64,000 nucleotides of DNA from Obrimoposthia wandeli (taxonomy: Eukaryota). Numbering within the stretch: the first letter of the stretch is position 1; every line of letters starts with the position of its first letter. The stretch is from positions 1 through 64,000 of the forward strand of contig CDROCS010000453.1 of NCBI GenBank assembly GCA_977020255.1, given 5' to 3'. The notes under the pieces were generated by a model. The model saw only the letters and a list, made by a program, of their open reading frames with translations, did not search any database and was not told the origin of the DNA. Shown piece by piece: positions 4 through 24,443 of this stretch. The position numbers were made by a program, and so were the translations under genes.

Positions 4-1234
4 CAGTACAAGTCTGAGTTACCCCCAAAATTGTAAGTTGTTTTGCTTTATTCAACAACAAAAAATTAATAAAAAAACTAAAATTCTAAACATTTACTTT
101 ATTCAATTAAAAAAGTTTTAAAAAAATCTTCATTACCTCGGCCAAAATAATCACCAGAGGAACTCATTAAGAAATTCATTCCCTTTAATTCCCCAAGACA
201 CTTTTTTCCTTAATAGCTAGTTTTAATTGTTAGACCAAAACTCTCAACACCACTTTCCAGATTCACGAAATGGTATTTGTGACACAGTTCGATGTTCGAA
301 CCCAGTAATACTTCCAAGGGTTTTATAACTAGCAAATTCATAAGTATGGATGATACTACCATGTCTTACAGCCTTGGAAATAATGGGAATGATTGTGGTT
401 TTGGTTTTGTTCGGTAACAAACAACAAAAACCTTTGGCTGGGGTCGTAGGTGTATCAACAATATGCAACACCCATGTTTGGCTTCTTGGAGCTCTTCCTC
501 CACAGGCTTTAACTGTATGGTTAACCATCACTTCATCAATCTGGCAATACAGCCTGGCCCATCGAGCATGATTGGACTTTTCATGAAATGTGTATCTATT
601 TGTTTATTAAAAACATTCCTTAATTTTCAGAATTGAATGTCTTGCCATTCCAACATAGTTTCAATTTCAATAAATTTTAGTTTGTTACAAAGGTGTCCTA
701 AAACTACTATAATGTTCTTCAAGGTTTTTGAACATAAAAAAAAACGAATTAGTTTTATACTCCTGGTTGTTGAAATTTCATACATCTAGGGATTAAGAAA
801 CCTCCCAATTGCATCAATGCAATTATCTTTGGCGTGTTTCAATATCATAAGAACTTCACAATACTTACAGGACATATTCACTTTTTATTAAACCTAGTGT
901 CATTGCAAACTGAACGATTTCTCGTTTTGTGACCTTTCTACCTTGGATAAAAATTCATGTAAAACATTTTTTTAAAATAATTTTTAAATCGAATATATAT
1001 AAATCAAATACAAACCAACTCCTGTTTAAACCTCCGGATTTATCCAGCCGTAAAACTAACTAACTAACTAACTAAATATTCATTTTCTTTTTAATATTTA
1101 TATTTTATAAAAAAGTGTATTTTTTCTGTTGTTTAGTTTATTTCTTTATTTGCAAAAATACCATCGAGTTATACCCCAATAAAAGATACAAGTCTGAGTT
1201 ACCCCCAAGTGGGGGAGTAACTCGAACTTGGTCC
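4..1234 (-). mobile_element. Merlin (IS1016/IS1595-like) DNA transposon relic with degenerate DDE transposase
   Basis: Minus-strand translation across frameshifts (~130-570) reads LDGPGC..QIDE..VNHTVK..GRAPRSQTWV...LPNKTKTTIIPIISKAVRHGSIIHT(Y)EFASYKTL...EHRTV and later RGIK...NEFLW. This follows the Merlin pattern (GGxGxxVEIDES, WVFG, NRTxxTLxxII, GSxIHTD). Motif TACAAGTCTGAGTTACCCCCAA occurs at 7-28 and 1187-1208, with a degenerate inverted copy at 1211-1234. Confidence 0.8.
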
Positions 1235-1974
1235 AAAATGTCAGCCAGGTCCTATGCCCTTGGCCTCAATACCTCCAATTTTAACGTGATAACCAAATGG
1301 CAATTACAGTTTTTAAGTATTCTAAAATAAAAAGTAAATACTCGATTAAATTTGTGGTGAAAAATCCTGTTGTTAGTACAATTTACCGAACAAAACTACA
1401 GGAATGTAATCAAATTGTTAATTTAATTTTGTTAGAAAATAGTAACCACTTCATATTGTGATATTCCTAATTTAAATAGTTAACGACTTCAATTGAACAA
1501 AATCACATAGTTTCAAATTTTCTAGTAGCAATAACTCAGTTGTTTTTCTGTTTCGCCTAGGCTTCATGATTATCAGTGCGCAATCATACATACATAGAAA
1601 GATTAATCCCATATTGCCTGATGTTCTGGGTTAGGTCTTCTAACAGTTAATCCGATTTTAATATTTCATAAGTCATTGAAATAAAAAGTAGGAGAGGGAA
1701 AACTAAACTTACTTTAAATGCAAAATTCCATGTTTAGTTCTTCTCCATTGAAATGAATTAAATTTCATTGTTGACAAATTATCCTAAATTTTATAGAATA
1801 AATAATCCGTCTATTCACTGGGAGATAAATAACGGGGTTCATCCTTTCAATGAATAGTATTCTATTCTTTCGAAACCATCCTGACCATAAAATATATAAA
1901 TTATGTATTTTTTTTCTCTAAACTACTGTTAATAAACGGTAGATGAAGAAGTAATTTTTATTCAGGTAACAAAC

Positions 1975-2069
1975 AATAATCAATTTCCGTTAGGTTTTCA
2001 GGCAATAATATGTAGTTGTAATAATCAATTTCCGTTAGGTTTTCAGGCAATAATATGTAGTGTAATAAT
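1975..2069. repeat. Tandem duplication, 45-bp unit x2
   Basis: AATAATCAATTTCCGTTAGGTTTTCAGGCAATAATATGTAGT(T)GT repeated head to tail, with one indel. Confidence 0.95.
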
Positions 2070-2154
2070 TCTTCGTTATCTAAATATTATGGTTTTTAAT
2101 CAAATTAAAATAGTGTGATCCAATTCACAAAATCAGTCCTTTAAATTGAATTTC

Positions 2155-2864
2155 TGTAGACAGATTCAACTATCCTGATCTGTTCAGAGATACAGCGAAG
2201 GGGAAAATCGAATGGCACAGTGCGGTAGACAGTTGAGGAAAAACGATTTCAGCAGTCAGACAGAGAAATCAACATGATTTGATAATAATAACTTTCTGTT
2301 TCTGGCTTTTTATTATTATTTGTAGTTTTGTCGTATATATATTCATTTAGTAGTGTGCAGCTTAAATATCTATCTGCTGCACATACTGGATAGATCTGGG
2401 CAGAGAGGAGAAGAACCGGATATTTCGGCTCTGCACACACTCACATGTGCAACCGGGGAAAATCCACCGCCCGTCGAACTCTGGCCAGGCGGTAAAAGTT
2501 TAATTTAAACACACACCCACCTGTGCACAATGGATAAGTAAGTGAGTGAGTAGGGAGAGTGAGTGAACAAGGGATTGAGTGAGCGATTGAGTGAGAAAAG
2601 GAGAGTGAGGAGTGAGTTGAGTGATGTCTGCTGTGTGAGTGTGTGTGTTGAAATGTGTACTTGCGCACACCAACAACATATGTCGACGATATTCGTCGGC
2701 ACATGAAAGGGGAATCTTTTCCCTGCTTTTTATTATTGTTGCCCTGGCTTCGCGGAATCCACCGCGAAGTTAGAGATAACAAGCCATCTCCCTGATGAGT
2801 ACCGGCAGGGCGAAACGGGCTTTTTCCCGTCGGAGATTGAATAGACAAAATGCCAAAGTGCACA
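2155..2864 (-). repeat. Putative 3' LTR (~710 bp)
   Basis: A GC-richer block bounded by TGT...ACA, lying downstream (on the minus strand) of the element's last ORF and a purine-rich tract (~2925-2975). It contains AATAAA-like signals on the minus strand, a CACT/GAGT microsatellite-like tract and several hairpins. It is unpaired, so LTR status is an inference. Confidence 0.5.
2786..2837 (+). ncRNA. Hammerhead ribozyme, type I topology
   Basis: ATCTCC [stem I] CTGATGA [core, 2792-2798] GTACC-GGCA-GG-GC [stem II] GAAA CGGG-CTTTTT-CCCG [stem III] TC [cleavage after C2831] GGAGAT [stem I']. All conserved core nucleotides are present. Confidence 0.88.
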
Positions 2865-3156
2865 TTTTAAAATCGGAACTTTTCCCTAATTAAGGAAAGT
2901 TCCCAATTAATTTTCAATTAATTAATTCCTTTTTACCTTTTCTTTTTTTAAAAATTTTTTCTTTTTCTTTTTATTTTTTAAACAAATAGCTAATATATTT
3001 TTCCAACAATCCTCCGGGTCATAAAAGTCTCTGTCCTCAGAATCATAATTTTTATCTTAATTATTAGTTAAACTATTTTGTCTTGTTTCTATTGTTACCT
3101 AGTGTTGTTTGTATGTTATAACTGATCAATGTTTTATTAATCACAATCATGTCTGG

Positions 3157-4197
3157 TTAAATATCGTTAAAATTTAGACAAGAATGAAAACAGAAATAAA
3201 ATAATAACAATACTACATAATCCAACAAAATCGGGGAGTTTTGTGTACCGGACTCCGAGTTTCCGGTCTTATGCGAGAACGATGAACTGGGGTTGTTCTC
3301 GCTAGATGGTGGATTCATCACCTCGGTCAAATCAAACTCTCTATTCAACATTTCCTCCTTCATTATGAAAATTTTTCGGGTGTGATTTGCATCTTCCATG
3401 CTAGTGTGGACTCCTTTTTGTGTTTCTATATTTAAGGTATTTCCGCACCATGTTGGCGAGTCCAATATTTGGGTGATTGTGATTTAGTTCTGATTTTATG
3501 CTTTTGGATATTCCTAAATCAACAATGTTGAATAGCATCCATTTCTGTAGGCGTAAAGCTTTTAAATCGTTTGTTAGTCCCACACCTACGATGATGTTAC
3601 CATACACAATGTTTTTTACTTCCTCAATTACTTCATCAGCATCTCTACATCCTTGTAACTTTCTATCTGACAGTCCAGTTATTCTAGTAACGTAATTTCT
3701 TACTCTGTTTCTAGATTACGCACAGTGTATCTATAATTACGTTACCTATGTAATATTATAATAGAAACACTTGCTAAAACTGGCTGTTTATCTACTGATA
3801 TCACCATTTCGCAATCGAGGAATAAAATTGCTGGTTTCTGTGCGTTTTTTTTCAAAAAGACTATTTGTTGAGGTTCTTCTGCTTTTCTTATTTTTTCTAT
3901 AAATAATAGATTTGGTCTCTTCCTATTTTTATGCTATATTGATTTTCTAATTGAGCTGCTTGTAAGGTGTAGGTGTGATTTCCTATCATCAGAAAGTTTA
4001 ATGTCTTATCTGATTTGGTTTTTAAATGCTACTCCTAGTGCCACGTGAATATCTATTTTTTCACAATTAATGTTGGGGAATATTCATACTGAGAGCCATA
4101 TGGGTTGGTCTTTTTCATTGGAAAAAATAAGTGCGCTAGTTCTTTCTTCTGTGGTAATTTTTAACTTATTAGGAAGAAATGTTTGATTTGAAAACAT
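3157..4197 (-). pseudogene. DEDDh 3'-5' exonuclease (REXO4/ISG20/REX family) with a ~120-aa N-terminal extension, frameshifted
   Basis: ExoI ILFLDCEMV (D 3814-3816, E 3808-3810). The middle reads VRNYVTRITGLSDRKLQGCRDADEVIEEVKNIVYGNIIVGVGLTNDLKAL (ExoII D ~3566-3568). ExoIII HTSMEDANHTRKIF lies at ~3370-3408. This parallels the REXO4 pattern ALDCEMV / DYRTxVSGI / GHxLxNDLKVL / HxSxQDA. ATG at 4197. Confidence 0.85.
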
Positions 4198-4556
4198 TTT
4201 CTTCCTCCGTTGTTTCTAAAGTATGCAATGCTAAACTGACGCATCTTTTGATACAGAGAATTTTGCTAATAACCACCTTTCTGGCATATTTTCCGTTTTT
4301 CCTCTTTCTATTTTTGCTGTGCTTTTTGTTTGATCTGACCGAGTGAGCTGGTCTGGAGTCGTATCAGGTGATTGCGATTATCCATTCTGCTTTAATCAAT
4401 TTTAAAGTAGTTGAATAAAATAATATAATTATTTCACAGTCTTAAAGTTATAAAAATATCAGTCTTATCCATGCAGTATGTGGGATTTGTCATGAAAATA
4501 AACTTATTAACAAAAGTTAGACAATTTGTACAAAAAGAAGGATGTATGATTATAGT

Positions 4557-4952
4557 TTAACCAGAATTTTGTTCACCAATGTTCATATCCGAGTCATATC
4601 CATCATCAAGTGTTGTATTAGTTGGGATAGTAGGATTAATGGTCAAATAAAAGTGTATCATGTCGCTATAGGTCATCATTTGTCTTCTTAATGAGGCTAT
4701 AGTTGATCGTTGACTTAAAGTTTGTTGTATTAAATAGTCTATTCTGCCAAAACTATGTGTCAATCTCCCTTCTAGTTCGTCAATTGTTAAATCATTATTC
4801 AATTTTTCTTCCACACTTTGTTTTATTAACTGTTTCAGTGATTCATTTTGAGTTGTGATCTTTATATAGTAGTCGTCATGCTGTCTGGAAACATCTCGAA
4901 TCTTTTTCTCTAATTTTTTGCATTTTTTACAAGCTTTTGCCAATCTGTTCAT
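4557..4952 (-). CDS. 131-aa coiled-coil accessory ORF of the retroelement, unknown function
   Basis: Uninterrupted ATG-to-stop ORF with heptad-like Leu/Ile spacing (LEKKIRDVSRQHDDYYIKITTQNESLKQLIKQSVEEKL...IDELEGRL). It shares the strand and composition of the flanking element ORFs. Confidence 0.6.
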   Translation of the reverse strand: MNRLAKACKKCKKLEKKIRDVSRQHDDYYIKITTQNESLKQLIKQSVEEKLNNDLTIDELEGRLTHSFGRIDYLIQQTLSQRSTIASLRRQMMTYSDMIHFYLTINPTIPTNTTLDDGYDSDMNIGEQNSG

Positions 4953-5304
4953 TTTTATATCTAAAAATAACCATTATTAAATTTCAGGATGCGTTTCCTG
5001 GTGATTTTATTTTAATATTATTTCATTAAATCGTCTTTAAAAATATATATATATCAAATTTTTATTCTATTTCCTAATTAATTTAGATTTACATAATAGT
5101 ACTAACATTTTTTGTTACTTAAACGGTTTTATTTAAAAAAGATTTGATTATTGTGTTATATTTCTTTTTCTATTTTCTATTACAGTATTTATGGATAATT
5201 CTGAAGAATTCTCATCCTTGGGAATAATATAAATAGTAAAAGGGCCTAGGACCCACAAAAGTGTTTTCGTTGTTTTGTTTCTATCATTTTTGTATGTTTC
5301 AAAA

Positions 5305-6420
5305 TTAACATTTTCCATGATATTTAAATGTATAGTGATTTATAAATGTAATCATTTCGATTACTATAACTATTATTATAAGTTCTTTTTTATTTTCATT
5401 CCTTGAATGTTCTTGTTTACTATAGTGCATTTTTAAACTTTCATTAAATGATTTATAGGATATTATTTCTGTTGTTTTTAATTTTAATTTAATTCTTATT
5501 TTTTCCGTAATTTCAACTTGATTTGTAACTCTGTAAATTTTTGATGTAAATGTTGTGGTATGTAGCAATTGTTTTGTGGTTATATCTTTAACATATTTCT
5601 TAATTTTTACTGCTGACCAACGACCACAAAAAATTGTAGGTTGATATAGTTTGGATATCTTATTTCCTAAAATTGTTAATTTTGTTAGATTTTTATAACT
5701 TTCAAACTTTTGACTCCATTGTCAGTACATTATTGGTTTATTAGTGATTACGCATTCTCTATTGTCTATTATTATTTTCTCTGGATATCTAATATTATCT
5801 ATTGTTAAATTTGTTTTATTTTGTGTATTTTCTAATTGTTTTCTGAGTCTTTCCAAAAATTAGCATTGTGTCCTCTATATCTAATTCTAATGAGGGCTTT
5901 ATCTAAGTCATCTATTTTTAGTTGAAATTCCCATTTTATCATTATTTTATGTTTTGATATATATTTTGCTGTTGTTTTTTAATATTGATGCTAGGTATAT
6001 GTGAGTTTCTATAATTCTTTCATAGGTGTTATATTTTTTAATTTCGACTTAATTCTTATTTTATATTGTGTTTCTGTTCTTAAAAATGGTATTGTATATT
6101 TTTGTGATTTTATTCCTGAAATAATTATATTTTATTTTCTATCTGTTTGTGTGATTTGCACATTTCCTGTTTTGTTTGTAAGAAGAGAAATATTTAACTT
6201 TATTGATGTGATTTTAGGTATTATTGTTATTAATCCAAAATTTTTTATGAGATGAGTTGTTGAGTCGTATTTATTTGTTTGTTGCTGTATGATTGATTGA
6301 TTTTCATTTATGTTTGTTGCGTTTGTTTTCAGTAGGTTATATTTTATTATAAAATATATTATCAATAACATCATTATTTTACCAATTTCTTTTATTGATA
6401 TTTTATTGTATTTCTGGTTT
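5305..6420 (-). pseudogene. Second membrane-protein ORF downstream of integrase: signal-like segment, FN3-like ectodomain, C-terminal TM
   Basis: KISIKEIGKIMMLLIIYFIIKYNLLKTNA (basic then hydrophobic). The ectodomain includes SQKYTIPFLRTETQYKIRIKS and IKWEFQLKIDDLDKALIRIRYRGHNANFWK (FN3-like strand patterns) and several N-glycosylation sequons. TM segment ELIIIVIVIEMITFI at ~5335-5385. Several frameshifts and stops. Confidence 0.5.
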
Positions 6421-8660
6421 GATGACTCAAAATAGTTTTATTTTGTTTTTGTGAGTTTTTTATTGTCAACATTTGTAGTACTGTTGTATCTTTAGTTGGT
6501 CTTATGTTATATTTGTGACTTTTTACTGTATTCTCCTCAGGTATTTCTCGACATCTGTTTATATGTGCTCTTATTTCTTTTGATTTTGGTTCATTATCTA
6601 GTTTAGCTGTTATGTTGGTTCCGTTGGTACTAATGACTGTATATGTTCCTTTGTATGACTTTGATAATTTGTGAGACAATCCTACATTAATTTGTGGATT
6701 GTGAATCATCACTTTACTTCCGCTTTTTATATTTGATGGCTTAGTTCTTCTATCCTAATATTCTTTGTAATTTTCTTGTATGTTTTTTACAAATAGTTTA
6801 GCTTTTTCGAATGCTAGTTTTATTCTTTCTCTAATTTCTATTTTATATTCAGGTATTTCTAAATATTGTGTAGTAGGTTGTAGTAATGTTAGGTCAATAG
6901 GCATTTGAGGATCTCTGAGGAACATAAGATAAAAAGGTGTTTCTCCTGTGGATGCATGTACTGATGTTCTATATGCAAAAAGGCATGGAGGTATGTGTAA
7001 ATCCCAATCTGTTTGATTGTTGTTTGTGTATGATGCCATCATATCTTCGAGGGTTCTATTAAATCTTTCTACTAACCCGTCAGTTTGAGAGGTTATATGG
7101 TGTTGTATTGATCTTTTTATGTGAAAAATTTCAGCTATTGACGCTAATACATTATTTATAAATTCAGGACCTTTGTCGGTTAATAATTTTCGGGGTGCAC
7201 CGAAAGTAAAAATAATTTTTTCGACTAAAACCTTCGCGATGGTTTCAGCCTTATGATCATGTGTTGGAAAAGCCTCTGGCCATCTTGTAAAATAATCAGA
7301 AAATACTATTATATATCGATTTCCTCGGGGTGTTTCAGGTAATGGTCCCATTACATCCATGGCAACAGTTTCCATGGGGGCCGATGGATAAGGCATTGGC
7401 TTTAAAGGTACTTTTGTGGTACGTAAAGTATTTTTCCGTTTAAGACATATTTCACATGTTTTACACCAATTTTTCACATCTTCCTTCATGTCAATCCAAT
7501 AGTATTTTAAATTTAATCGTGAATGTGTCTTTTTTGATGATAAATGTCCTCCTAGGGCTCCATTATGATATTGAAGAAGTAATTGACACTGAATTTCTTT
7601 AGGAATAACTAGTGAATATAGATATTTGTCATTTAAATAATATAATATTTCATTACTATACTTGTATCGTGATTCGTGAATTTTTAAATGTTTTCTTAAT
7701 TTTTCATCTGTTGGTACTTCGTTTGTGCTAATGTATTTAGTTATTTGCTGAATTTCATTATCTTTGCTTTGAAGTTTAGTAATTACTTTTTCATCATATT
7801 TAGCTTGAATTATTGTAAAAAGATTTAATTCGATGTCGTTTGCAGTTATTTCGTTTATTTCTTCTCTTATTCGTGATAGACAATCTGCATTAGCGTTAGA
7901 TTTTCCTTTTCTATATTTTATTTCAATATCATATTTTTGTAAAATCAATGCCCATCTCATTAATCTAGATGTTGTATCCTTATGATTTAAAAGCCATTGT
8001 AATGGTCTTTGATCTGTGTAAACATAAACCTTTCGACCTAATAAGTAATGTTTAAAATGTTCCATTGCGAAACAAATAGCTAGGCATTCTCTTTCTATCG
8101 TTGAGTAATTCTTTTCATGTTTTTTAAGACCTCTGCTCGCATATGCTATCACATGATCTTTTTCGTTATTTTCCTGTTGTCCTAAAACTGCTCCTAACGC
8201 ATAACCACTGTCGTCAGTCATAACTAAAAATGAGTTATTAAAATTAGGATATCTAAGTATAGGTTTTTCGATTAATTTTTGTTTTAAATATTCATAAGAT
8301 TCTTGTTGTTCTTTTTCCCATTCAAATTTTTCATCTTTTTTAATAAGTTTATTTAATGGTATTGCTATTTGTGCGAAATTTCTAATAAATCTTCGATAAT
8401 ATCCTGCAAGCCCTAAAAATTCCTGTATATTTTTTACTGTTTTTGGGATTGGAAAATTTTTAATCTTTTCTACATTACTCTCGTCTGGTTGTATTCCTTT
8501 TGCTGATACAGCATGTCCTAAGTAATTTACTTTATCTTTTATCCATTCACATTTCTTTGGTTTTAGTTTTAATCCTGCTACCTGTAATCTTAAGAATACG
8601 TTTTCTAAATCTTTTAAATGTTCTTCAAAATTTTTTGAAAAAATAAGAATGTCGTCGATA
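6392..8660 (-). pseudogene. pol: Pol, 3' part: RT C-terminal half, RNase H, integrase with GPY/F module
   Basis: IDDILIFSKNFEEHL...KLKPKKC...YLGH...FLGLAGYYRRFI (RT). FLVMTDDSGYALGAVL, YSTIERECLAI and YTDQRPL (RH). HHCC zinc finger, VAMDVMGP, LLTDKGPEF and DGLVERFNRTL (IN). After a premature TAG at ~6755, KLSKSYKGTYTV (GPY/F). Confidence 0.95.
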
Positions 8661-8662
8661 TA

Positions 8663-10218
8663 TAATATACGTCAAAATTAATGCACATTTTGTTAAAAAA
8701 AATAAAAATATGATTTTATAATTATAAGTATATTTTAATTTCAAATTTTATCAAGAAATTTTATTATATGTAACTTATTAAAGTTATTAAATAATTATTA
8801 GTAGTTATATAATAATATTTCATTTAATAATTTTAGGTTATTTGTTTCACTATAATCTGAATGACGTCATAAAAAACGCACAATTCAAATTATTAGGTAT
8901 TATTGCATATCTTTATAATTAATCATATTTATTATAGGTCAAATTGAAATTAACCATGTCGAAACAATTGACAAAAGAAGAAACTAATGCTATAATTAAT
9001 TTGGTAAACGAGGGGCGCACGTTTACACATATCGGTTTAATCTTTGGTAGGAGCCATACTACCATTTCAAGATTGGTTCAAAGATTAAATAATCCAAATT
9101 ATATGGATGAAAAGAAGAGAGTCGAAAACAGAAGCTTACAAGGTTTCAAAAGCATGGTAAAGCGAATTACGAATCACGAGCCATTCCTGAGTGCGAATGA
9201 TGTAAGAAGAGCTAATCTGACCGATATCATATCAATTCGATCAATGCAGCGTTACCTCAACAGAATGAAACTTTTTGGGCGCATAGCTAAAAGGATTAAT
9301 CTCCAAACTAAAGCATCGCGAAAGAAACGAATAGACTTTTGTAAAAGTGTCAACAATTGGAATTTAGATACTTGGAAAAATATAAATTTCTGATGAAGGT
9401 ACGATTCGAATTAGAATCTAAAAGAATAATGTATGTTAGGAGACCCATTGGGCTAAGAAATCGTTTAAAATATTGCATAAAATTTCGTTATCAGGAGAAA
9501 AGGCATTATGTTCTGGGGTTGTATTTGTTCTGACGGCAGGAGAATAATTGTACTACTGGATCTGGATTAATAGCATTTCTTAAATTTATTAAATGAACAT
9601 TATTTATATGATTTTGGTAATAATATAATGCTTCAAGATATCAGTCATACATCTCTATACGAGGCAATTCTTTAATAACCACAATATAAGAATAGTTGAA
9701 AATTACCCTCAAGATCTCCAGACATTAATGTGATTGAATGTTTGGAGCATTGTAAAACTCAGTTAGAAAGAGATATCCAAGAAATTTAATTCACTTGAAA
9801 GCAATTGTAAATGAAGAATTCCATAATGTTTCTCTAAATGTAATTGATAAATTATATAAAAGTCTACCATTGAGAATTGCTACAATTTTATCAAATAAAG
9901 GTGAATAAGTATTAATATATATTGATTTTCATTGTTGTATTATGTAAATTTTGTAATATATGTAATTGCATAATTCATTTTTGTTATTTATAAAGTTTTG
10001 TGCGTTTTTTATGACGTCATTCAGATTATAGTGAAACAAATAACCTAAAATTATTAAATGAAATATTATTATATAACTACTAATAATTATTTAATAACTT
10101 TATTAAGTTACATATAATAAAATTTCTTGATAAAATTTGAAAATAAAATATACTTATAATTATAAAATCATATTTTTATTTTTTTTAACAAAATGTGCAT
10201 TAATTTTGGCGTATACTA
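8663..10218 (+). mobile_element. Tc1-family DNA transposon with ~220-bp TIRs and TA target duplication, inserted in the RT
   Basis: Near-perfect inverted repeats at 8663-8882 and 9999-10218, with TA at 8661-8662 and 10219-10220. The frameshifted transposase (8944-~9910) has an HTH region, then F(S)DEG, MFWGCI and SPDINVIE. Removing the element restores GTA ATG GTA TAT ATC GAC GAC (VMVYIDD). Confidence 0.95.
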
Positions 10219-10220
10219 TA

Positions 10221-11490
10221 TACCATTACGTGATCTGCATCCATTAAAATATGGCTCATACATCTCTGAAATGTTGCTGGAGCTCCGGTTAATCCAAATG
10301 GTAAGACATTGAATTCATACAATCCTTCTCCTGTTGAGAAAGCTGTTTTATATTTATCTGACTCCTCAATTTCTATTTGCCAGTATCCACTCTGTAAATC
10401 TAAAGTTGTAAATACTTGTGCATTTTTCAGTTTGTCTAATATTTCATCAATTCTTGGCAGTGGATAAGTATCTTTGTGAGTGACTTCGTTTAGTTTTCTG
10501 TAATCTACGCAAAATCTCAAAGAACCATCTTTCTTTTTTACTAAAACGACAGGTGATGTCCATGCAGAAAAACTTCTTCTAACAATTTCATTTCTAACAT
10601 TCCTTTTATTTGTCTTTGAGCCTCATCTCTGTAGGCATATGGAATTCGGTAGGGTCGTTGTTTTATTGCGGTGTTTGTTGTTAACGGAAGATTATGTTTT
10701 ATCAAATTTGTTCGACCTAAATCGTATTCATTTTTAGCAAATATTACATCATATTTTTCTGTTAAAGTTTTAAGTTTTGATTTTTCATAATCATTTAATT
10801 TAATATCGTTAAAATTTATCGTAGATTTATCTTCTATTTTTTCATTATCTATTAATTCAATATTTTCAATAACACTTATTTTTCCAAGACGTACTCCTTC
10901 CTTGAGATGAATTTCATTAATGTCTGCATTTAGGATTCTGATTGGTATTGTGTTGTTTTTTATTTTACAAATTATATTTGCAAAACGTAGTTCAAGGTTT
11001 CTTGTTGATATTTATAAGGCTCAAATAATACATCTTTTCTGTGATTATGTTAGTTTCTAGTTGTAACATTGTTTCTGTTCTTGGTTGGAGAATGATATCT
11101 CCTTTTATTTCTAACTCGTATTCATCTTTGGCGTTAGATCTGTAAATGTATTTTATTTGATTTTTCAAAATCAAAGTGGAAATTATTTCCTAATCTTCTT
11201 AATGTATCTATTCCTATGATCATTTGGCAAGGACAATTTTTCATTATTCTTGTAGGTAATTTTATGAATTTATATCCTATTTTAAAAAGACAGTCTAATT
11301 TTCTTATTATATCTACGGGTTGACCGTTTGCTGCTGTGACTTGACTATTTTCCTTAAGAAGAAGTAATTTTTTGTTGTGTTTTAAGAAAGATTCGTCTAA
11401 AACTGTTACGCTTGATCCTGTGTCAATTATAAGCTTTAAGTTTATATTCGTTAATTTCTACCTTTACATATGGTCGTTTATCGTTATCTT
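10221..11490 (-). pseudogene. pol: Pol, 5' part: aspartic protease, spacer, RT N-terminal half
   Basis: KRPYVKVEINEYKLKA(fs)IIDTGSSVTVLD (protease, DTG ~11417-11425). Then KQRPYRIPY, SPVVLVKKKDGSLRFCVDYRKLN, YPLPRIDE, LDLQSGYWQI, KTAF and FNVLPFGLTGAPATFQR. Confidence 0.95.
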
Positions 11491-11669
11491 TTGATTTATT
11501 GTATATATTGTTGGTGCAGTTGATTTTTGTATAGTTGTTTTATCTATATATTTTTCTAAATCAGGATATTGTGAAGATTCCGTTTTTTCTGTTTCTTTGG
11601 TACTTGTAATTTTTTGTATATTTGTTTCTCGCATTTCATTTGATAATGTGTTTACTATGTTTTGATGAT

Positions 11670-13544
11670 GATTAAAAATAAGGAATTTTGCCAAAAATGG
11701 GAAACATCCTAAGATTAATTTCCATGTTAATCCTCCAACTTTATAAATATAATATGTTGATAAAATTTGACTTAGAAGAATCTTAAACAAATTAATAGAG
11801 CATATATTCCAACTAATCCAGAAAATGCTTGTCCAAAAATTAAAAATTTACCCCATATTTTTGACATGGTGTTTTTAGTGGCTTTTATAAAATGATTTGG
11901 AGAAAGTAATAAGTCGTAATCGGGACGGCTAATTCCGTCAGGTACTGATCTTTCTATGATTTGTGTTAAAATTCTGGATCTTATTTGTGGAAATAAAATT
12001 TATTTTCTTAACTTATCTATATCTTCCTGTATATAAATTCCTTTTTGTGTTTAATTCGTTATCTGATTGTATATTGATGTCGTTGCTGAGAGTGGTTAAT
12101 TGTAATTTTTGTGGTTCTGCGACAATATCTCTTCTTGGAAGTGAAATCCAAATATCTTTTGAAATTTGATAATGAAGTGCCATTATGTTTGAGCAGTTTA
12201 TTTCTTTTATGCTAAAAGTGTTAAAAAGTATAAATTTAGTGATTGGTTCTACAAATAATGAATTATTTTTGTAAGAAATTGGTAATTCTTTTGTACATTT
12301 TTGATGATTTCTTATGTTAACTATTACTTTTTTACATTGATAAGTGTATAACACTTCTCCCATTACTCTTCCAAAAGTACCGTCAGCTAATGGTAATAAT
12401 GGTGTTATTAATTCTGGGTTAGTTGCAATAATTGCCAATTTCGTTTTTAATATTTCCTGATTTAATTTACAATCATTCATTATAGTTTCTCTATATATTG
12501 CTTCTATTGTCATTAGTCCTTTGTGATAAAAATAATCTAATTTATTGTTAAAATAATCATAATTTTTAATATCAAATTTAGTTGGTGTCGTTTTTGCATT
12601 ATGTATTTTTTCATTACTTAAATATATTCCTTTATATTTAGTTGTATAAAGAGAGTGTCCACATCGGGATTCCTCTTTCTTTTTAATAAATCGCATTCCT
12701 GAACCTTGTTCAATAGACATTAATATAGTTGGAGTTGGTGTTTTACGTATTTTTCTAGTTCTATATATTTTGTGTATGTCCTTTGGAATTTGTTGATCTA
12801 GTTCCGGATCATCTCTAAATCTTTTTCCTTGAATTATTTGAAAAGTTTCTGATTTTAAATGTATTAATTTACATTGATCGATTTTTACTTTGTAGTAAAG
12901 TATTGAAGAACCCGTGTTACAGTGACCTATGTTTGCTTCACAAAATGGCATTGTTACCATTGTGTTTGTAGAAGGGTCGAATGTTGCTTTGAAAGTTCTT
13001 AGTTCGACTTCAAAATTTTTAATAACTACTAAACCACTTTGCTTAACTCCCATTACTACATAAGTTCCTGTTGTACATTCTCCATCAGATTTAATCGTAC
13101 CTACAACTGATATCATTTGTTGAATTATTTTATTTTTCGCCGCTCGGACTTTAATTTCTCTATCTATTCTCCTGTTGCGAAAGCATCTTTACTATTAAAA
13201 GCGTCAACTATTATTGGTGTTTTTCCTAATGCTGGTTTTACTATTGAATTGTGACTATGTTGTCCACAATATGTTATAAATGTCTCTACATGTACTCTAC
13301 ATTCGAAAACTTCTGCATATATGAAATCTGTTTCCTGATATACTTGATATAACTTAGTATTTTGGATTTTTACCTCATTTGGGTCAGCGTCTGCACATTG
13401 CTGTAAATCCATTAAAGAATATTTATTTTGGATTTTATATTTTGAACAATCATATGCTTCTAAAGCATTAATTGGTTTTATCATGTTCATAATTAGACAT
13501 ATTATTAATATTATCTGAATAATTTTCCATAATTTTTTCATCAT
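11670..13544 (-). pseudogene. env: Envelope glycoprotein, chuvirus-G / herpesvirus gB-like class III fusion protein type, located between gag and protease
   Basis: Signal-like MMKKLWKIIQIILIICLIMNMIKPINA, then AYDC...SLMDLQQC, FECRVHVETFITYCGQHSH, VGTIKSDGEC, C..NIGHC, CKL....LKTKLAI..TNP, GEVLYTYQCKKVIV..R...CTKELPISY....FVEPIT and C......YQI...W. The membrane region is WGKFLIFGQAFSGLVGIYALL. The cysteine spacing matches my recollection of chuvirus-type G proteins. Frameshifts at ~13164, ~12013 and ~11790. Confidence 0.8.
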
Positions 13545-15350
13545 TTTATTAAGATTATTTGTATGGTTAAAAATTTTAGTTTTTTGATTTTCTATTGTTT
13601 TACGATTTTTCTTGTGTTTTACTTTCTTTTCTTGTGTTTGAGTAGTTTGGTTTGTTTTTGTGATTGTATATTTATTTTTTTGTAATGTCAAACAACCATC
13701 TCTAAACATGTCTCCAAATTCGGATTGTAAGTTTGTTCTATCTGTTTGTGGTTCACTGTTATGGCATTGTTGGTGTATTTCTCTGTAACGATTATCCATT
13801 TCTTTAAGTCGTAATTTTAACAATGCTAATTCGTCTGTGTTTGGAGTTGTTTCTGTATTTTCTATAGTGTGAATAGGGTTTCTTGGGGTATATTGTTGAT
13901 CTTGAGTACTGAATTGTACTGTTTTTTGAACTTGTGGTTGCTGTTTTATTATTGTGTTTCCAAATTGATTCATCATTGTGTTTAATTTTCCACAGTCATC
14001 GGTGTTGTGATTTTTCATATTACAAATCTTACAAAATTTTGTATCATTATTAAAATATCTATTTTGATTATTGTCATAATTATTTGGTTTATTGAAGTTA
14101 TTATTCCTTGGTAGTGTATTATTACTCTGTCTATTTATTAATTTTCTACAAGTTTCAATTGTGTGATTGTCTTTTTTGCAAAATCTGCAAAATTTTATGT
14201 TACTTAATTTTCGACAATTTTCTATTGTATGGTTTTGGAGTCCACAATTTGTGCATTTTTGAAAAGATCTTTGTGTAAATTGTGAGTATGCAAAATTTCT
14301 GTTTGTCTGGTTTCTATAAAATTTATTTATTGGCGGTCTAAATTGTTGAGGATTTTGAAAATTATATTGAGTATCTTGGTTAAAATTCCTAGATTGGTTG
14401 TAGTTTCGTGGCATTTCTATTTTTTCAAAAGATAATGCTGAAACTTGGGTTTGCTGTATCATATTCAGTCTTGCTTCTACTAGTTGAGCTTTTCCTATAG
14501 CCTGTTGAAAGTTTTCTACTTCTAGTAATGCAGGGTGATCTCTAATTTTGTTATTTAATCCATGTAAAAATTGATGTAAAAGTAATCGTTCTCTTTGTGC
14601 TTCTTCTATTTCGGGAAAAGATTTTAATGCAAGTCGTCGTAATTCGACTGCGAATATATTTGTGGGTTCCCCTACATGTTGCTCTCGTTGTCTAAATTGA
14701 TTTAAGTAGTTCTGGTCGGACTGTGCTCCTAAAACCATATTTTGGAAATGCTGGACTAAGTGTTCCCATGTGTCTTTTTGCAGATTTATTAGTCCTCTAT
14801 AAATGGTTAGGGCAGTGCCTTTTAGGTATGCTGGAAAAACTTTAAGTTTTTCTAGGTCTGTCCATTCGAATGCTTGAGCAAAAGAATCATATCTATTCAA
14901 GAATTCTGGTAAAGATGATTTATCGCCATTAAATGCGTCTAGTGGTATGTTTAATCTATGATTTGCCATTTGAGGTACTTCGTTTATTTGTTCGTTATTT
15001 ATTTCTATGTTAGGTGGTACTGGTTCTGCCACTGTTTCTGATTTTTCTGACGAGTTGTCTGAGTCAGATGTTTGTGGTAAGGATAAACTTTCTGTATCTG
15101 AATTTGATGTTAGGTTTTGGTTTTCAGAGTCGGTTGAAATTAAGCGATCCGTGTGTTGGTGAACTAACGTAGTTTCAGGGAAAAATTCGTTATTTGTTCT
15201 AAAATTTATCTGGGATTTAGGTCTCTGTGGTAGTGTTTCGCTTGTGTTAGTTCTTACCAATCTAGTCTGAATGCGTCTCCAGTGAAGATTAGCACTACGT
15301 TTAGATTTTGAAATCTTTGTGTATTGTTCACTATTATCCTGCGTACTGGG
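13545..15350 (-). CDS. gag: Gag with three CX2CX4HX4C zinc knuckles, in the same ORF as the env signal peptide
   Basis: Capsid-like region (FNGDKSSLPEFLNRY..FAQAFEWTD..KL..FPAYLKGTA...YAVELRRLA-like FAVELRRLA...QFLHGL). Knuckles CTNCGLQNHTIENC, CRFCKKDNHTIETC and CKICNMKNHNTDDC at ~13990-14255. The frame is open from ~15360 to 13164; the true start codon is not recovered. Confidence 0.9.
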
Positions 15351-16419
15351 TCGAAAATTAATTTATGTGTTTATATATTGTTGTCTAGTTTTGTTGAAAA
15401 CGATTAAATAAATTTTATATTTTAAATAAATGAAATTTTTTTTAAAAACAGTCAGGAATTATTTCTGCTCTGTGATCAAAATACAGCTCGGCGTTATGAT
15501 AATCGATTACCGTGATTTGAACTGCACTTTCAACCAAAGTAATAGAAAAATTTAACGATGAAACTCCAAAAAATCTGAGTTAAAACTTGTTGCGAGTGTG
15601 GGAAGATGCTGATACCGCACCAATCAGCCAAAATTTAAAATATGCCTTGCTCAATGCAGTGTTGAATGAGTTCTTGGCGGAACTTGTTACTCCTCAACGG
15701 CAACAGCAATCATCACATCAGTATCCTCTTTTCCAGATGCAACATGATGCTAAAATATTTGTTTCTAATTCGCTAGTGTTTATTGAACTAATATTTGTCT
15801 TGACTTTTTATGTCAGGTAGGAGAAAAGTAAATGGAACATTTCTTATACATTTGACTTCGTCAAAAGATTAATATTAATAATAAAAAAATTGTCAGAAAT
15901 AAAAAGTAGTAACATCAAGAACCACATAATCAAATAGAGAAACTCCAAATTACAGCGTTTTTCGTAACGTTTTTTATAGATTTTTGTGGGCCATTCAAAC
16001 AACATATAATGGGAAAATAAAATAATTGCTATAATTGATCAATTCAGTTCTGAACACAGTCAAAGTTTAAAACAACAGCAACACAAATTATGAACAATTG
16101 AATTCTTAAATTTGGAGCTCCGAAAAAAAACACATTATGAAGGAAAGAAATAATTCTAATCAGATTTAATGAAAGAGCTAGCAAAGATAATTTAAAATTA
16201 TATTATCATTTTCAAGTCTACATCATCATTCAAGTAATGGATTAGTCGAAAAACAAATTCCGAACAATCAAAGTTTTTTTTTTGAAAATATATTCTAAGG
16301 TGAACTGGCAATGACGGGTTATAAAGGCGTCTGGGCATCTCTGGATTAGAACAATAGAATAAGTATCGATACACGCCCTCCGAAACACGAAATATACGTT
16401 TAATAATAAATATCAATAC

Positions 16420-19940: not shown

Positions 19941-20587
19941 GAAATTTATCCGACTTTTATTTTGTAATTATTTTCCTTATGACGACTTTCTTTCTAACGC
20001 TTTTTCTCTTTAACTACTTTTATGTCTTTTATGTTGGACTTTAGTAAGATGAAGTCTATTGTAATTTAAAAAAGGTTAAAACAAATTCAGGATGGACTCA
20101 TTAATCTATTCGCAGACAAAAATTGGAAAATATTTTCAATTACCTCATTTTTTAAAGAATCTACTGACAAAATACACAAAATTCCAAAGTCCAAAATATC
20201 ACAAAAGACAGTGAATAATAACTAAATGATAAATAACACAAACGAATGTACAAAAATAGCAAATCTCTTCATTTTTTACAAATGAGAAAATGGAAAACAT
20301 CAACACAGTTACATGGAAATTCAATTTCCAACTCTGATGGCCTTAGCCACCCCTCCTTCGGTTAGTCAGGCTCTGATTAGTCAAAGCCTGCTAACCAATC
20401 ATGGTGCCGAAAATGTGTGTCATGAATGGCTGAGCTGCAGCAGATGAAATTTGCAGATTGACCTTGACCGGCAGTGTCTCCATGTCTCTGGAATTGCCTG
20501 ATTCTCGGATCGAGCCGTCGCCCCGGTTGTACTCTTCATCTCCGTCACTCAACCTACGTTAATTCTCTGTGTGACCTTGTCGTCATT

Positions 20588-20939
20588 ATGGAAGCAGAGC
20601 TCAAGTGCCCGCACTGTTCACTTTGGTTTCGGCGCTCATTGCTGTTGCCATGTGGGCACAGTGTCTGTCATCAGTGTGCAATGGAGCTCACCAGTGACTC
20701 GGTTGTCCCAAGCAATCCGGTTACTATGACAACCACAGCCACTGTGGCCATGGCAACCGCGACAGCCACATCCAGTGAGCCGGACTCTGACCACCTCAGC
20801 GAGACCAGTGAAGCAGATTCCGGTGTCGTTGTCAGCAGCCATGGAGGCGCTCCCAACAATAGCTCCCTAGCAACGACTACTGCAGCCCCAACAACTACCC
20901 CACAGTCAGCGTCAGTCGGCTCAGCAGCTTCCACTACAG
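20588..20939 (+). CDS. TRIM9: TRIM9/TRIM67-like E3 ligase, coding exon 1 (RING N-terminal half)
   Basis: MEAELKCPHCSLWFRRSLLLPCGHSVCHQCA...SEADSG, matching TRIM9 LKCPVC..LPCSHNLC..CA..SEADSG. Donor CAG|GTGCGT is phase 1, consistent with exon 2. TRIM9 versus TRIM67 is not resolvable here. Confidence 0.88.
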
Positions 20940-22149
20940 GTGCGTCACCCCAGCAAAAAGGAGAGAACAAAACGTATAGATTCAATCTGTTACTTTAACC
21001 ATTTTTAATTAAAAAAAACTGAATACATGCCAAGTATTCGCGAAATAATGATCTTTTCCATTTTTCTATTTGGTAAATTAACATCGAATTATTAATTCAT
21101 AAATGTGATGATAATACTTAAGCAAAATTAAGTAATAATTGTATGACAATGTGTTTTAATAAATTGAAAAAGTTAACTGGTTTCATATGTTTTGTAAAAT
21201 GCTTTTGGAATTGCTTAACTGGGTTTCTATTGTGCTTCGAATAAAATATCTACGATTTATTGGTTCTACGTTATACTAAATCAATGATACACTTACTTTG
21301 TTTTGTACGTAGAAATACTTTCAATCATTACGGGGTGATTTTAAACTTATTTTAGTATTTAATTATATTTTTAAATTTAAAACTGTATCAAAAGTAAAAT
21401 TTAATTTAAGAATTTATACAGTATTGGTAAATTTAATAAAGACAAACCCTATTGATATATTCGACATCATATCTAACAACATTGTAAAATAGTTTGACTA
21501 ACCCAGGATTAGCCGAAATCTTATCTATCTTGCAAATATCTATTATGCGGGAAAACTTGGTTGAAAATGTAAAAATTTAACAGATCAGCAGCTCATGTCC
21601 AGAGTAATTTATTATTAGAATCCGGATGTTAAAGTCCAGAAATTCCCTACCAATGACTCATAAGAAGTAAGCAGCAAAAGGTAGCACACTAATATGAAGT
21701 ACATTTATTTAATTAATTTAATGCAAATTTATAAATACAGTGTATTTTTTCATAATATTTTTTTTATTCAAAGCGGATCTATTAGTCTGAGACTTATATT
21801 CATTCAGCGTCGATTTAGACATTTAAGGAGAAACACAAGTTCCTTAATATGGCACTGGGTATATCGAGAAAAATGCATTGCTGTATTTATTTACTTTGAG
21901 AAGTAATGAATACAACCAATTTCTACTTATACATTACCCATCTTTACTAATTACTACTGTCATCAGCATTTACAATATATAATTAATATTTAGTTTTTTT
22001 TCAGAAATCGGTAAAATAGCGTATTCGTCATCAAAATTGTTTCCTGAATTTATTTAATGTCAGATATAACTTATTTTTACACAAAACGTTACTTAAAGTA
22101 TAGTTGGACTATTTAAACACTTTAAAATGTTTATGCATTATGTTTGTAG

Positions 22150-22403
22150 ATAACCTAGAACATGACCTTGTCAAATTAGGCCACTGTCTCGGTCCGCCCG
22201 TATCCACGGTGATGTGTGTCAACAATCGACCGAGTCAGTACTCGCTGCGCTGTCCCTCGTGTCAGCGTCTCATCCTGCTCGACTCAACCGGTACCGAATG
22301 TCTGGTACGCAATCGCGCTCTCGACCGAGTCGTCATGAGATATCAAGAGAAGATGGCCGGCCCAGATGCCCCAGCAACCGCTGACCCCCTTGTTCTGTGT
22401 CAG
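22150..22403 (+). CDS. TRIM9: TRIM9-like exon 2 (RING C-terminal half to start of B-box1)
   Basis: Acceptor TTGTAG|AT (phase 1). LRCPSCQRLILLDSTGTECLVRNRALDRVVMRY matches TRIM9 ITCPQCHRSLILDDRG...KNRVLEGVIDRY. Donor CAG|GTAGGT is phase 0. Confidence 0.9.
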
Positions 22404-23230
22404 GTAGGTACAACCTGCTCCCTTATCTTTCTGATTCGACACAGATTTCCCTACAGACACAGTTTGTGATGGGTATTGAGTGTCATTTCTAGCCCGTTTG
22501 TTCTGCTATCCCATGTTTTATATTTCGTCAACTTAATCCAATTGTCATAAGACATAATTTATGCATAGACATGGTTTTTAACATCATCACAATTAATAAT
22601 AAAAATATATTTTTTATATAATATACAAATTTTGTAAGGTTTGTTTCATACTTTATAAAATCTTTCTTGTGATTGTTCGTGTCGTCTCAGGTTTTGGAGG
22701 TAATTGTGGGAAAGAGAAAGCTGGCAATGGCAATGCCGATATGAGTGTGCGAGAGCACGGGTGGGCAGTGGGGACATCTGCAACACAAGGGCAATCCCGT
22801 CTTCTAATCAGGTAACACTTGACTGAAGCAGGGAACTTGAAACAAACACTGAAATTGATTTATTGGACAACTCCACGTTCGTATAGATAACCGCGCGATG
22901 ACGGTGACGGCGCAGAAGTGGCCATTGAGAGAGAGAATCTTTGTTTGATGTTGCGTGTGAGTGCTATCGAGTGGTATTGATTGTGAAGCTTCGACAAGAT
23001 TGAAATGGTATGATGATTGTAATTAGGGTAATGTTGATGAGAATGTGGACGGTGATGATGATAATAAAGGGTAACTTTGATTAATAAAATTAAAAATATA
23101 ATTAAATTATTAAAAGTCTTAAAATAAGAAGGTTAAAATGTGATAAAAAACTTATGTAAAACGTCACCATCAAAAATGTAAATAATTTAAAATTTGATAA
23201 GCTAGCCTATTAGAAACCGTTGTCGTGTAG

Positions 23231-23599
23231 GTGTGCGAGAGCTCCTCTCCGTCACCAGCAGAACGCCTATGTGAGCAGTGTGAGTTGCTCTTCTGTGCGG
23301 CGTGTCTTGTGCGCGGCGGCCATCAATCCCAGTCCCAGGAGCAGCATGTGCTGCACTCCCCCAGGACTGGGAGACGGCTCCTTGACAACCGCCGCCGCCA
23401 AGCCAAGGCCATGTGTCCGTGTCACCATGCGAATAACGTCCCTGACAGCGAGGAAGGCAGCAGTAGCAGCAGCAACAACACTCTGGAACTGAGTCTCTTC
23501 TGTGGTAACTGTCGCATGATCATATGTGCTCGGTGTGTCCAGCAGTTCCACTTGCAGCACGAGATACACTCTATCGACTCCGTCTGCCGACTGCAAAAG
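23231..23599 (+). CDS. TRIM9: TRIM9-like exon 3 (B-box1 and B-box2)
   Basis: VCE...AERLCEQCELLFCAACL...H...H (B-box1) and CPCH...LSLFCGNCRMIICARC...HLQHEI (B-box2). AG and GT boundaries, 369 nt, phase 0/0. Confidence 0.92.
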
Positions 23600-24443
23600 G
23601 TGGGCATTCACACCAGTCACACTGGAACAGATATCAGGCTAATACTGGAGAAATAAAAACACGAAAAACTGAACTTTAAATGAATTTAATCTCTTGAGGA
23701 CTGCAATTTTTGCAACACACAAGAACTAAATTCTGAAACCTGACATGGATCTATAGTTAAATAATTTTTTAGAAGAGCAACCAAAGACTTTCTTGTTAGG
23801 TTTAAATTAGGTTTAAAAAGTAATAAATTTAATTATGTATAATAAAATTATATTATCTAGCTTAATGATGTTTTTGTATCTTTTTCATCTTATTTTTAAA
23901 AACATATTTTATATAGTGAAATTATTTATATGTATTTCATTTGGAAAAACTTTTGATCATAGAGCTATAAAAATAAACTAAAAAATAAAATATTTGCAAA
24001 TGATGCATATTTGAATGATTCATCCATTCTAATATTTTTTGCAGATTATAACTTCTTAATTTGACTAATTAAATCTTGTCTGAAGAAATTAATCTTTATA
24101 AATATTATAAATCATTATATATATGTGAATTTTTTTGATTTAAACCATATTATTAAAAAAATTCAATAAACACTAATTTCTCTGATTATTAATAACGTAT
24201 AAATAATGAATCATTACAAATGCAAATTACTTCCTTAAATACGGAGTACTTATTAACCATGTTTCCGAACATTAAATATCATGATGTTACAAAAAACTAT
24301 TGTTTTTCACGGTAACTTTTAATCAATCATAGAAAAATCTTATAAAAAAATTCATCTATCAATTTTTCCCTATAGAGTTTAGCTAAACCTTTTTGACATT
24401 TAATAAAAGTGTATTTTTTAAAATATTAATTTACATATTTTGT

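Follow-up and report, generated by a model that had tools for sequence, protein, structure and literature searches.

Background

The planarian Burro / GYPSM1 giant gypsy elements carry an in-frame env between gag and pol (Arkhipova & Yushenova 2019, PMC6431247; PMC11410931 only names Burro), and gB-type errantiviruses with the order GAG-ENV-POL are present in Nematoda, Bryozoa and Platyhelminthes (Chary & Hayashi, eLife 2026, PMC13524379, which cites Sacco et al. 2022, J Gen Virol, for a nematode metavirus with Env before Pol). Two further points of reference are the nematode Atlas virus, which has a single Gag-Pol-Env polyprotein (bioRxiv 10.64898/2026.03.22.711591), and the long terminal repeat (LTR) elements of rotifers, whose third open reading frame (ORF) codes for a DEDDy exonuclease (Rodriguez et al. 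2017, PMC5408684). Here we examine a stretch of 64,000 nucleotides from Obrimoposthia wandeli (assembly GCA_977020255.1, contig CDROCS010000453.1, positions 1 to 64,000; henceforth the window), which holds a dead copy of a young, high-copy Ty3/gypsy family with the Gag-Env-Pol order. Since the Burro report and PMC13524379 give this order, the core of that finding is already in print. The new part is a predicted signal peptide, an ectodomain of ~315 residues and a transmembrane (TM) segment that follow the integrase in the same frame and would make up a second surface protein, which is apparently undescribed; we found no published account of such a unit in a survey that Grohme 2018, Sacco 2022 and the published figures lay beyond.

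A single frame through Gag, Env and Pol

A preliminary description of the window, made from its sequence alone, had noted an uninterrupted frame from the Gag zinc knuckles through an internal signal into a glycoprotein, and its peptides and coordinates proved correct. The minus-strand stop-to-stop frame 15362-13164 (732 residues; TTG at 15260, first ATG at 14972) is free of stops; it takes in Gag sequence, three Cx2Cx4Hx4C knuckles, a hydrophobic stretch (13538-13461) and then a match to the Pfam family PF24664, Monjiviricetes_fusion (E 3e-16). The sister copies of the element extend this to the entire protein. One natural copy, L031, has a single stop-free frame of 2,889 codons, in which PF24664 covers residues 619-1270 (E 5.5e-91) and is followed by protease (PR), reverse transcriptase (RT), RNase H (RH) and integrase (IN), with neither a stop nor a separate ORF between gag and env. 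A diverged copy, L114 (G000:C430), which is 88% identical to L031, has a comparable frame of 2,911 codons. Because both copies keep one frame through Env, the Gag-Env fusion in the window is not a chance event, and the earlier reading of a gB/chuvirus-like fusogen in frame between Gag and PR is borne out by the one ORF of the sister copies, the PF24664 match and the predicted fold described below.

Between L031 and L114 the synonymous divergence (dS) from Gag to RT is ~1, and the ratio of non-synonymous to synonymous divergence (dN/dS) is 0.05 for the capsid region (0.05-0.20 across Gag), 0.04 for the Env ectodomain and 0.04 for PR-RT-RH. After the integrase the two are nearly identical (dS 0.02-0.06), and hence L114 is probably a recombinant between two subfamilies.

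We then scored the junctions in two sets of copies, leaving out 14 that had been picked for the length of their frame. The Env-PR junction is open in 19 of the 28 scorable copies among 29 ranked by Gag score, and in 13 of the 17 scorable among 20 chosen by their integrase (32/45 combined). For Gag-Env the integrase-chosen set provides the unbiased count: 7/15 are open as against 8/16 for a stretch of equal length inside Env, and the breaks lie at different codons, no site being common to two of these copies. The corresponding count in the Gag-ranked set (25/29 open) cannot be taken as unbiased, since the query itself extended across this junction. The frame from the integrase into the second ectodomain is open over 1,200 nucleotides in 13 of 27 scorable copies, again with scattered breaks. 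Env as a later insertion flanked by target-site duplications (TSDs) was also considered and is rejected: all 28 Gag-ranked copies scorable at both junctions have Env at the same spacing (largest offset 28 nucleotides), and the Env ectodomain is under purifying selection (dN/dS 0.04).

These counts bear on whether there is a programmed frameshift or stop at the border of Env and Pol, or of Gag and Env. The preliminary description had left open whether the shift near 11480 in the window was decay or a programmed event. It sits in a run of A whose length also differs in 3 of 29 other copies; the window and two of these share the change at codon 1296 and one more has it at codon 1297, which speaks for a programmed site. 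Against this stand the open Env-PR junctions in both sets, the parity of Gag-Env with its within-Env control and the lack of any shared break at Gag-Env. There are 308 indels that change the frame, 146 of them close to runs of five or more (copy L093 contributing many of them), so that errors in assembly may account for some of the damage. We conclude that the window shift is decay or an assembly error in the A-run, and that the genomic layout has no programmed shift and no hidden stop; as an account of this layout the alternative is refuted, and we regard it as extremely improbable overall.

The envelope protein has a class III fold

The ectodomain of the intact natural Env was modeled with an alignment of 55 homologs, giving a predicted local distance difference test score (pLDDT) of 87 and a long central helix at residues 301-348; this model was used in place of a single-sequence prediction, for which the score was 28. 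In Foldseek searches the top PDB matches were all herpesvirus gB (best E 4e-13) and the top viral models were chuvirus-type G proteins (E 4e-38, template modeling score up to 0.79). Likewise, the ten best VIA matches were all class III fusogens, led by gB (Z 9.9, root-mean-square deviation 8.5, 419 aligned residues) and followed by the rabies, Bourbon, Chandipura and Thogoto proteins. Of the 35 PDB rows returned for an Env sequence profile, 33 are gB chains, matched weakly along the central helix (best E 0.02), and the identities are 9-13% to gB and about 20% to chuviral G. The similarity to class III proteins that the preliminary description had proposed to look for is thus present, and the model supports a gB / chuvirus-G type fold for this Env, which has 14 cysteines and evolves under purifying selection over its whole ectodomain (dN/dS 0.04-0.05). 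Env most likely fuses membranes.

One might instead picture an element that moves only within cells, with Env and the second protein acting as assembly anchors in the endoplasmic reticulum (ER) or as a block to superinfection rather than in entry. A high copy number indeed needs no extracellular step. The complete class III fold, the 14 cysteines and the constraint throughout the ectodomain are more than an anchor needs, and we consider this proposal improbable, the least likely of the functional alternatives weighed here.

A signal-like stretch precedes Env in 15 of the 18 proteins with Env ahead of Pol described below, where it would be cleaved. The Env TM segment with a short second hydrophobic patch behind it also recurs in relatives and in one stand-alone G protein. 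The basic motif RTRKIRK, earlier put forward as a possible furin site, lies in a low-confidence loop of the model; it is non-canonical, none of 21 relatives has R-x-K/R-R at this place and L114 lacks even the minimal motif, and we reject it as a candidate.

In some relatives a Bcl-2-like segment lies just before the Env signal: residues 9-70 of P0008 (Pfam E 0.001; this protein is not in the tree) and, by eye, residues ~1290-1330 of P0013 and ~840-880 of P0003. The Env signal could double as the membrane anchor of this segment. P0013 (1963 residues) has a very long region ahead of Env with no Gag match, in which exonuclease-like and Bcl-2-like parts can be made out by eye, and is possibly a cut Burro-like polyprotein.

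A predicted second membrane protein after the integrase

The preliminary description did not notice that the ORF runs past the integrase. Beyond the integrase and a YNLR motif the frame of intact copies continues for ~450 residues, which comprise a signal-like stretch, ~315 residues with seven N-glycosylation sequons, a predicted TM segment and a short tail. A 414-codon open frame in this position is not expected by chance at this composition (p ~3e-18).

Besides P0001, searches brought up 22 long proteins that combine this Env family with Pol. In 18 of the 23 a match to this Env lies ahead of Pol, and in 12 of these 18 the same chain also has a Gag match; apart from L031 and L114, 11 natural single proteins show the order Gag-Env-Pol. 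The post-integrase signal-like stretch is seen in 15 of the 18 (two are cut at the integrase and one has a tail without the stretch), and 13 of these 15 display a further hydrophobic stretch near the C-terminal end. The remaining five of the 23 proteins have no match to this Env, end within 90 residues of the integrase and fall outside the clade. Among 82 Pol relatives without Env on record, 34 have long tails and nine of these carry a hydrophobic stretch, five of the nine lying inside the clade; outside it 4 of 29 long-tailed relatives have one. In an RT-RH tree of 42 rows (midpoint-rooted, for drawing only) all 20 rows labeled for the stretch belong to one group of 24 with support 100/99, and the clade retains the layout of signal, ectodomain and TM segment at RT identities down to ~50%.

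The ectodomains in this position are diverse. Two relatives (P0002 and P0190; Pfam E 4e-8 and 1.5e-5) have an immunoglobulin (Ig) domain, both without the final TM segment, and many others have a repeat with a C-x-x-L-x-P-x-T-x-Y-like motif. A profile of the repeats of ten relatives matched chains of EphA2, NCAM2 and PTPRF in 7 of 8 rows (E 0.03-0.4), over stretches that we take to be fibronectin type III (FN3) domains. For the ectodomain of the window's own family, Pfam gave fn3 at E 0.2 only, and the ten best ESM Atlas family matches all lay in the fn3 family or clan, each below 0.9 and of low recognition value. This ectodomain had no match among PDB sequences, and a homology search with the post-integrase region returned nothing among 6,395 candidates of 244-779 residues. 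An FN3 fold for this ectodomain is accordingly a lead only.

Within the window's family the second protein changes much faster than Env. Across 41 copies the segregating non-synonymous and synonymous variants number 16:5 in the second ectodomain (ratio per site, pN/pS, 0.79; no stop), as against 4:21 in Env, 12:25 in Pol and 10:16 in Gag; the difference from Env has a Fisher p of 7e-5, a rough value for copies that are related. Between L031 and L114 its dN/dS is 1.7, with an interval of 0.7-5.9. In view of its fast change, the likeliest role for the second protein is a host-facing one, in attachment or as a decoy for immunity. A complex prediction for the Env and second ectodomains scored 0.00 with an uncertain fold of the partner, and is evidence neither way.

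Two more specific accounts of this unit can be set side by side. On one, which we hold tentatively and by analogy, the clade would consist of retrovirus-like elements with two glycoproteins, in which Pol lies between a gB-like fusogen and an FN3/Ig-like type I protein that might serve as a swappable, fast-evolving receptor-binding or triggering partner, internal signal peptides yielding both glycoproteins from one polyprotein. Herpesvirus gB has such partners in gD or gH/gL. On the other, to which we give slightly less weight and which we likewise regard as doubtful, the unit is cargo taken from the host, not the same in every lineage and drifting in the window's family, with no role in entry. 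The ectodomains do differ: P0002 and P0190 have Ig domains, others are FN3-like and that of the window's family is unmatched; the pN/pS and dN/dS values are of the kind that drift would give; and the lineage is known to collect domains (PMC6431247). Drifting cargo sits poorly with the signal-ectodomain-TM layout kept across the clade to ~50% RT identity, and with the long open frame that has no segregating stop among 41 copies.

A model for the polyprotein

The genome RNA would be read as one polyprotein of ~2,760 residues with neither frameshift nor readthrough, in keeping with the single frame at the DNA level. In the arrangement we favor as probable, this chain would be inserted into the ER with four membrane crossings and be cut by signal peptidase and PR, yielding a fusogen and a host-facing accessory protein. 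Gag would lie in the cytosol, signal 1 would open the lumenal gB-like Env, the Env TM segment would return PR-RT-RH-IN to the cytosol, and signal 2 would open a second lumenal, beta-rich ectodomain whose protein the last TM segment would anchor. Signal 1, the tail of Env and signal 2 would hold Gag and Pol to the membrane until the element's own PR cut Gag and the enzymes loose, and host signal peptidase would free both glycoproteins. One membrane would in this way be the joint site at which capsid, enzymes and envelope are made and particles bud. Flaviviruses offer an analogy for such a membrane-threaded polyprotein, and the flavivirus-like processing suggested in the preliminary description is plausible on the sequence features.

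Several observations weigh against this arrangement. The signal peptides and TM segments were assigned from hydropathy and pattern only, and the additional short hydrophobic patch behind the Env TM segment could alter the topology. Only 2 of the 44 copies fetched are fully open over the whole frame. The pN/pS of 0.79 fits a host-facing protein under diversifying selection and relaxed selection alike. A profile of the post-integrase ectodomains of 12 relatives matched two of eight test segments (P0181 and P0201) and missed the window's family, which scored below 35 of 50 shuffles, and Pfam detected no FN3 in the post-integrase segments of ten relatives; thus a common layout is supported and common ancestry of the domain is not established.

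An alternative of a different kind is that the one ORF seen in DNA is expressed from several messages, splicing or internal initiation giving Gag-only, Gag-Pol or Env-only products, which would make the topology of the polyprotein less important. Methionine codons are present ahead of both signal stretches in the natural copy, retroviruses do not usually make Gag and Pol at 1:1, and errantiviruses as a rule express env from subgenomic messages, all of which speak for it. Separate messages would not require the frame to be kept across all junctions at dS ~1 and in 11 distant relatives, as it is, and we judge this alternative unlikely, if a little less so than purely intracellular movement.

The copy in the window

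The layout Gag-Env-PR that the preliminary description saw in the window stands, and the copy is more broken than was implied there. Relative to the natural sister copy it has 19 frame-changing indels and 4 stops. Env goes on in two further pieces, 13188-12013 (E 2e-35) and 11847-11464 (E 5e-4). By Pfam, PR, RT, RNase H and integrase follow it in gypsy order, and PR (~11482-11134) is in a different frame from the Env piece before it. A Tc1/mariner element has inserted into RT with 225-nucleotide terminal inverted repeats (TIRs) at 8659-8883 and 9998-10222, and the frame of the sister copy aligns across the insertion site. Likeness to the sister copies ends near 15553; the 5' LTR and the primer-binding site (PBS) are absent from the window, where no PBS motif was found. 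The features are, in the order of the reading frame:

15356..15553, minus strand: remnant of the 5' leader, the element being cut off where similarity to sister copies stops (~15553)
13541..14972, minus strand: Gag from the first ATG, with a capsid-like region, three CCHC-type knuckles (~14255, ~14189, ~14033) and a linker (from sequence, and weak phmmer matches to the Gags of relatives)
13461..13540, minus strand: signal-peptide-like stretch 1, with a basic n-region and a hydrophobic core (Kyte-Doolittle 2.0), ending I-N-A before the start of Env
11847..13460, minus strand: class III (gB / chuvirus-G-like) Env ectodomain (PF24664, model, Foldseek, VIA), with breaks near 13180, 12040 and 11995
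11483..11846, minus strand: predicted Env TM anchor, short second hydrophobic patch (hydropathy 2.0 and 1.7) and tail to PR, with breaks near 11790 and 11490
11134..11482, minus strand: aspartic protease (Pfam gag-asp_proteas, RVP), DTG at ~11424, in frame with Env in most copies
10217..10622, minus strand: 5' part of the reverse transcriptase (PF00078 E 7e-24)
8659..10222, plus strand: Tc1/mariner-type DNA transposon within RT just before YIDD, foreign to the element (225-nucleotide TIRs at 98%; HTH_38, HTH_Tnp_Tc3_2)
6500..8664, minus strand: 3' part of RT, RNase H and integrase (H2C2, rve and C-terminal region to a YNLR-like motif at ~6511), from Pfam and mapping
6315..6400, minus strand: signal-peptide-like stretch 2 (hydropathy 1.9-2.1, basic n-region), in frame after the integrase in intact copies
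5386..6314, minus strand: second ectodomain of ~315 residues with 7 N-glycosylation sequons, for which an FN3-like fold is no more than a lead (Pfam fn3 E 0.2, ESM Atlas), broken in the window
5151..5385, minus strand: predicted C-terminal TM segment of the second protein (hydropathy 2.2-2.9; mapping) and short tail, end of the polyprotein frame
4557..4952, minus strand: accessory ORF of 131 residues, coiled-coil-like (weak coiled-coil Pfam matches only), intact in 8/10 sister copies
3200..4385 (lower coordinate approximate), minus strand: accessory ORF for a DEDD-type exonuclease (PF00929 RNase_T E 6e-7), 389 residues when intact, broken in the window
1927..3008, minus strand: 3' LTR, TGTT...AACA, with a purine-rich stretch ahead, matching the LTRs of 9/9 sister copies

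Of 10 sister copies, 4 have the exonuclease ORF at its full length. In the natural sister copy the Gag region has no Pfam Gag or zf-CCHC match. Elsewhere in the window, exons of a host RING / B-box (TRIM-like) gene, GC-richer than their surroundings, lie upstream of the element (20468-23656, plus strand), and a short ORF at 244-603 (minus strand) reads by eye as a fragment of an IS1595/Merlin-type transposase.

The family and its recent mobility

A Gag-Env query found 109 copies among 15,074 candidates scored (96-100% identity) and an integrase query 138 among 39,923 (97-100%), both figures being lower bounds rather than copy numbers. Nine of ten sister copies read at both ends have a pair of LTRs, 97.0-99.9% identical over the best match. 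The LTRs are 1.2-1.5 kb long with TGTT...AACA ends, in elements of ~14.5 kb. Eight of nine copies have a 4-bp TSD by script, the ninth being off by one base in the call of its end, and the PBS shows complementarity with host tRNA-Trp(CCA) genes at their 3' end. The paired LTRs with their high identity, the TSDs and the tRNA-Trp PBS together indicate recent mobility. ARAGORN found no tRNA at any of the first four loci examined for the primer tRNA and six tRNA-Trp genes at the fifth.

The Pfam positions in the natural copy give the order PR-RT-RH-IN, which is that of Ty3/gypsy elements (Metaviridae), and the nearest named Pol matches are K02A2.6-like proteins with gypsy-type Pfam sets; the RT tree contained no BEL/Pao rows. 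On the best explanation the element belongs to the Burro-like Gag-Env-Pol lineage of Ty3/gypsy LTR elements.

Some further observations concern the family and its relatives. The primer tRNA of the element is encoded in a tandem tRNA-Trp(CCA) array (L119, G000:C5734:143176-151119) with a period of ~207 nucleotides and 36 pattern matches; loci L115-L118 have 25-45 nucleotides of the 3' half of tRNA-Trp, including CCA, with no full tRNA gene, and are probably long PBS copies of related elements. In the LTRs (L051-L070; window 3008-1927) ~450-750 nucleotides at the 5' end are common at 80-90%, and the 3' part varies, with tandem repeats of differing period; the coding regions are 98-99% identical despite these differences between copies. 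Two or three aspartic-protease-like domains, some after the integrase, are present in P0004-P0007, P0016, P0166, P0168, P0171-P0173 and P0176. P0009, of the Gag-Env-Pol type, is deposited under a Flavobacteriaceae metagenome-assembled genome and is probably animal DNA in a bacterial bin. Outside the clade, the gypsy polyproteins P0228, P0233 and P0236 have two post-integrase hydrophobic stretches ~500-590 residues apart, and are possibly in-frame Gag-Pol-Env proteins.

Significance and comparison with known systems

The window's family illustrates cleanly a layout that is in print but has received little study. As it is compact and young, with hundreds of near-identical copies, it allows direct measurement of selection and of the intactness of the frame, and these measurements show the single frame to be real. 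What merits most attention is the predicted membrane protein behind the integrase. Should the second protein be an attachment factor, it would explain the cell choice of gB-type retroelement envelopes, which lack the helper glycoproteins of herpesviruses, and the element would be a retroelement with separate binding and fusion proteins; should it be a decoy, it would mark a conflict between host and element at the cell surface. Either way, the annotation of the C-terminal end of these polyproteins changes.

Burro reportedly has several TM segments noted by Grohme 2018. Sacco et al. 2022 are said to describe in their abstract a continuous gag-env-pro-pol ORF with an RNA-virus glycoprotein in nematode hosts; these elements are not known to have a membrane protein after the integrase.

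As far as the available part of PMC6431247 goes, Burro resembles the window's family in its one ORF, with a Gag carrying three CCHC knuckles, a mononegavirus-like env in frame before PR and then RT-RH-IN, as well as in its accessory ORFs and very high copy number. It differs in size, being >30 kb with an ORF1 of 4,873-5,140 residues as against ~14.5 kb and 2,889 codons, and the window's family has no match to BCL2, BIR, MATH, ankyrin or ubiquitin domains (Pfam, E up to 1); a relative in the same RT clade, P0167, does carry Burro-type ankyrin and ubiquitin-like domains. That part of the account mentions no second signal-ectodomain-TM unit after the integrase. The errantiviruses of PMC13524379 share the Ty3/gypsy Pol, the gB-type Env, the Gag-Env-Pol order and the many young copies. 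By eye, the Env of the window's family resembles the Platyhelminthes C1a rows (Smed_errantivirus_1-6) in cysteine pattern and motifs, and the spans of Smed_1 and Smed_2 (14.8 kb with 3-kb flanks) imply ~8.8 kb of coding sequence, as in the window's family. A flatworm-like host would be a guess from this Env likeness; searches with two arthropod markers, cuticle and hemocyanin, gave no match, though no positive control backed them. The available text of that paper speaks of three ORFs and makes no mention of a single-ORF polyprotein, fibronectin or immunoglobulin. The rotifer elements, in the accessible portion of PMC5408684, likewise have, behind pol and ahead of the 3' LTR, an accessory ORF of DEDD type; there the exonuclease ORF replaces env, whereas in the window's family it is additional to Env. 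Finally, herpesvirus gB and chuvirus (Monjiviricetes) G belong to the same fold family as the modeled Env over its whole ectodomain, which is here embedded in the polyprotein of a retroelement.

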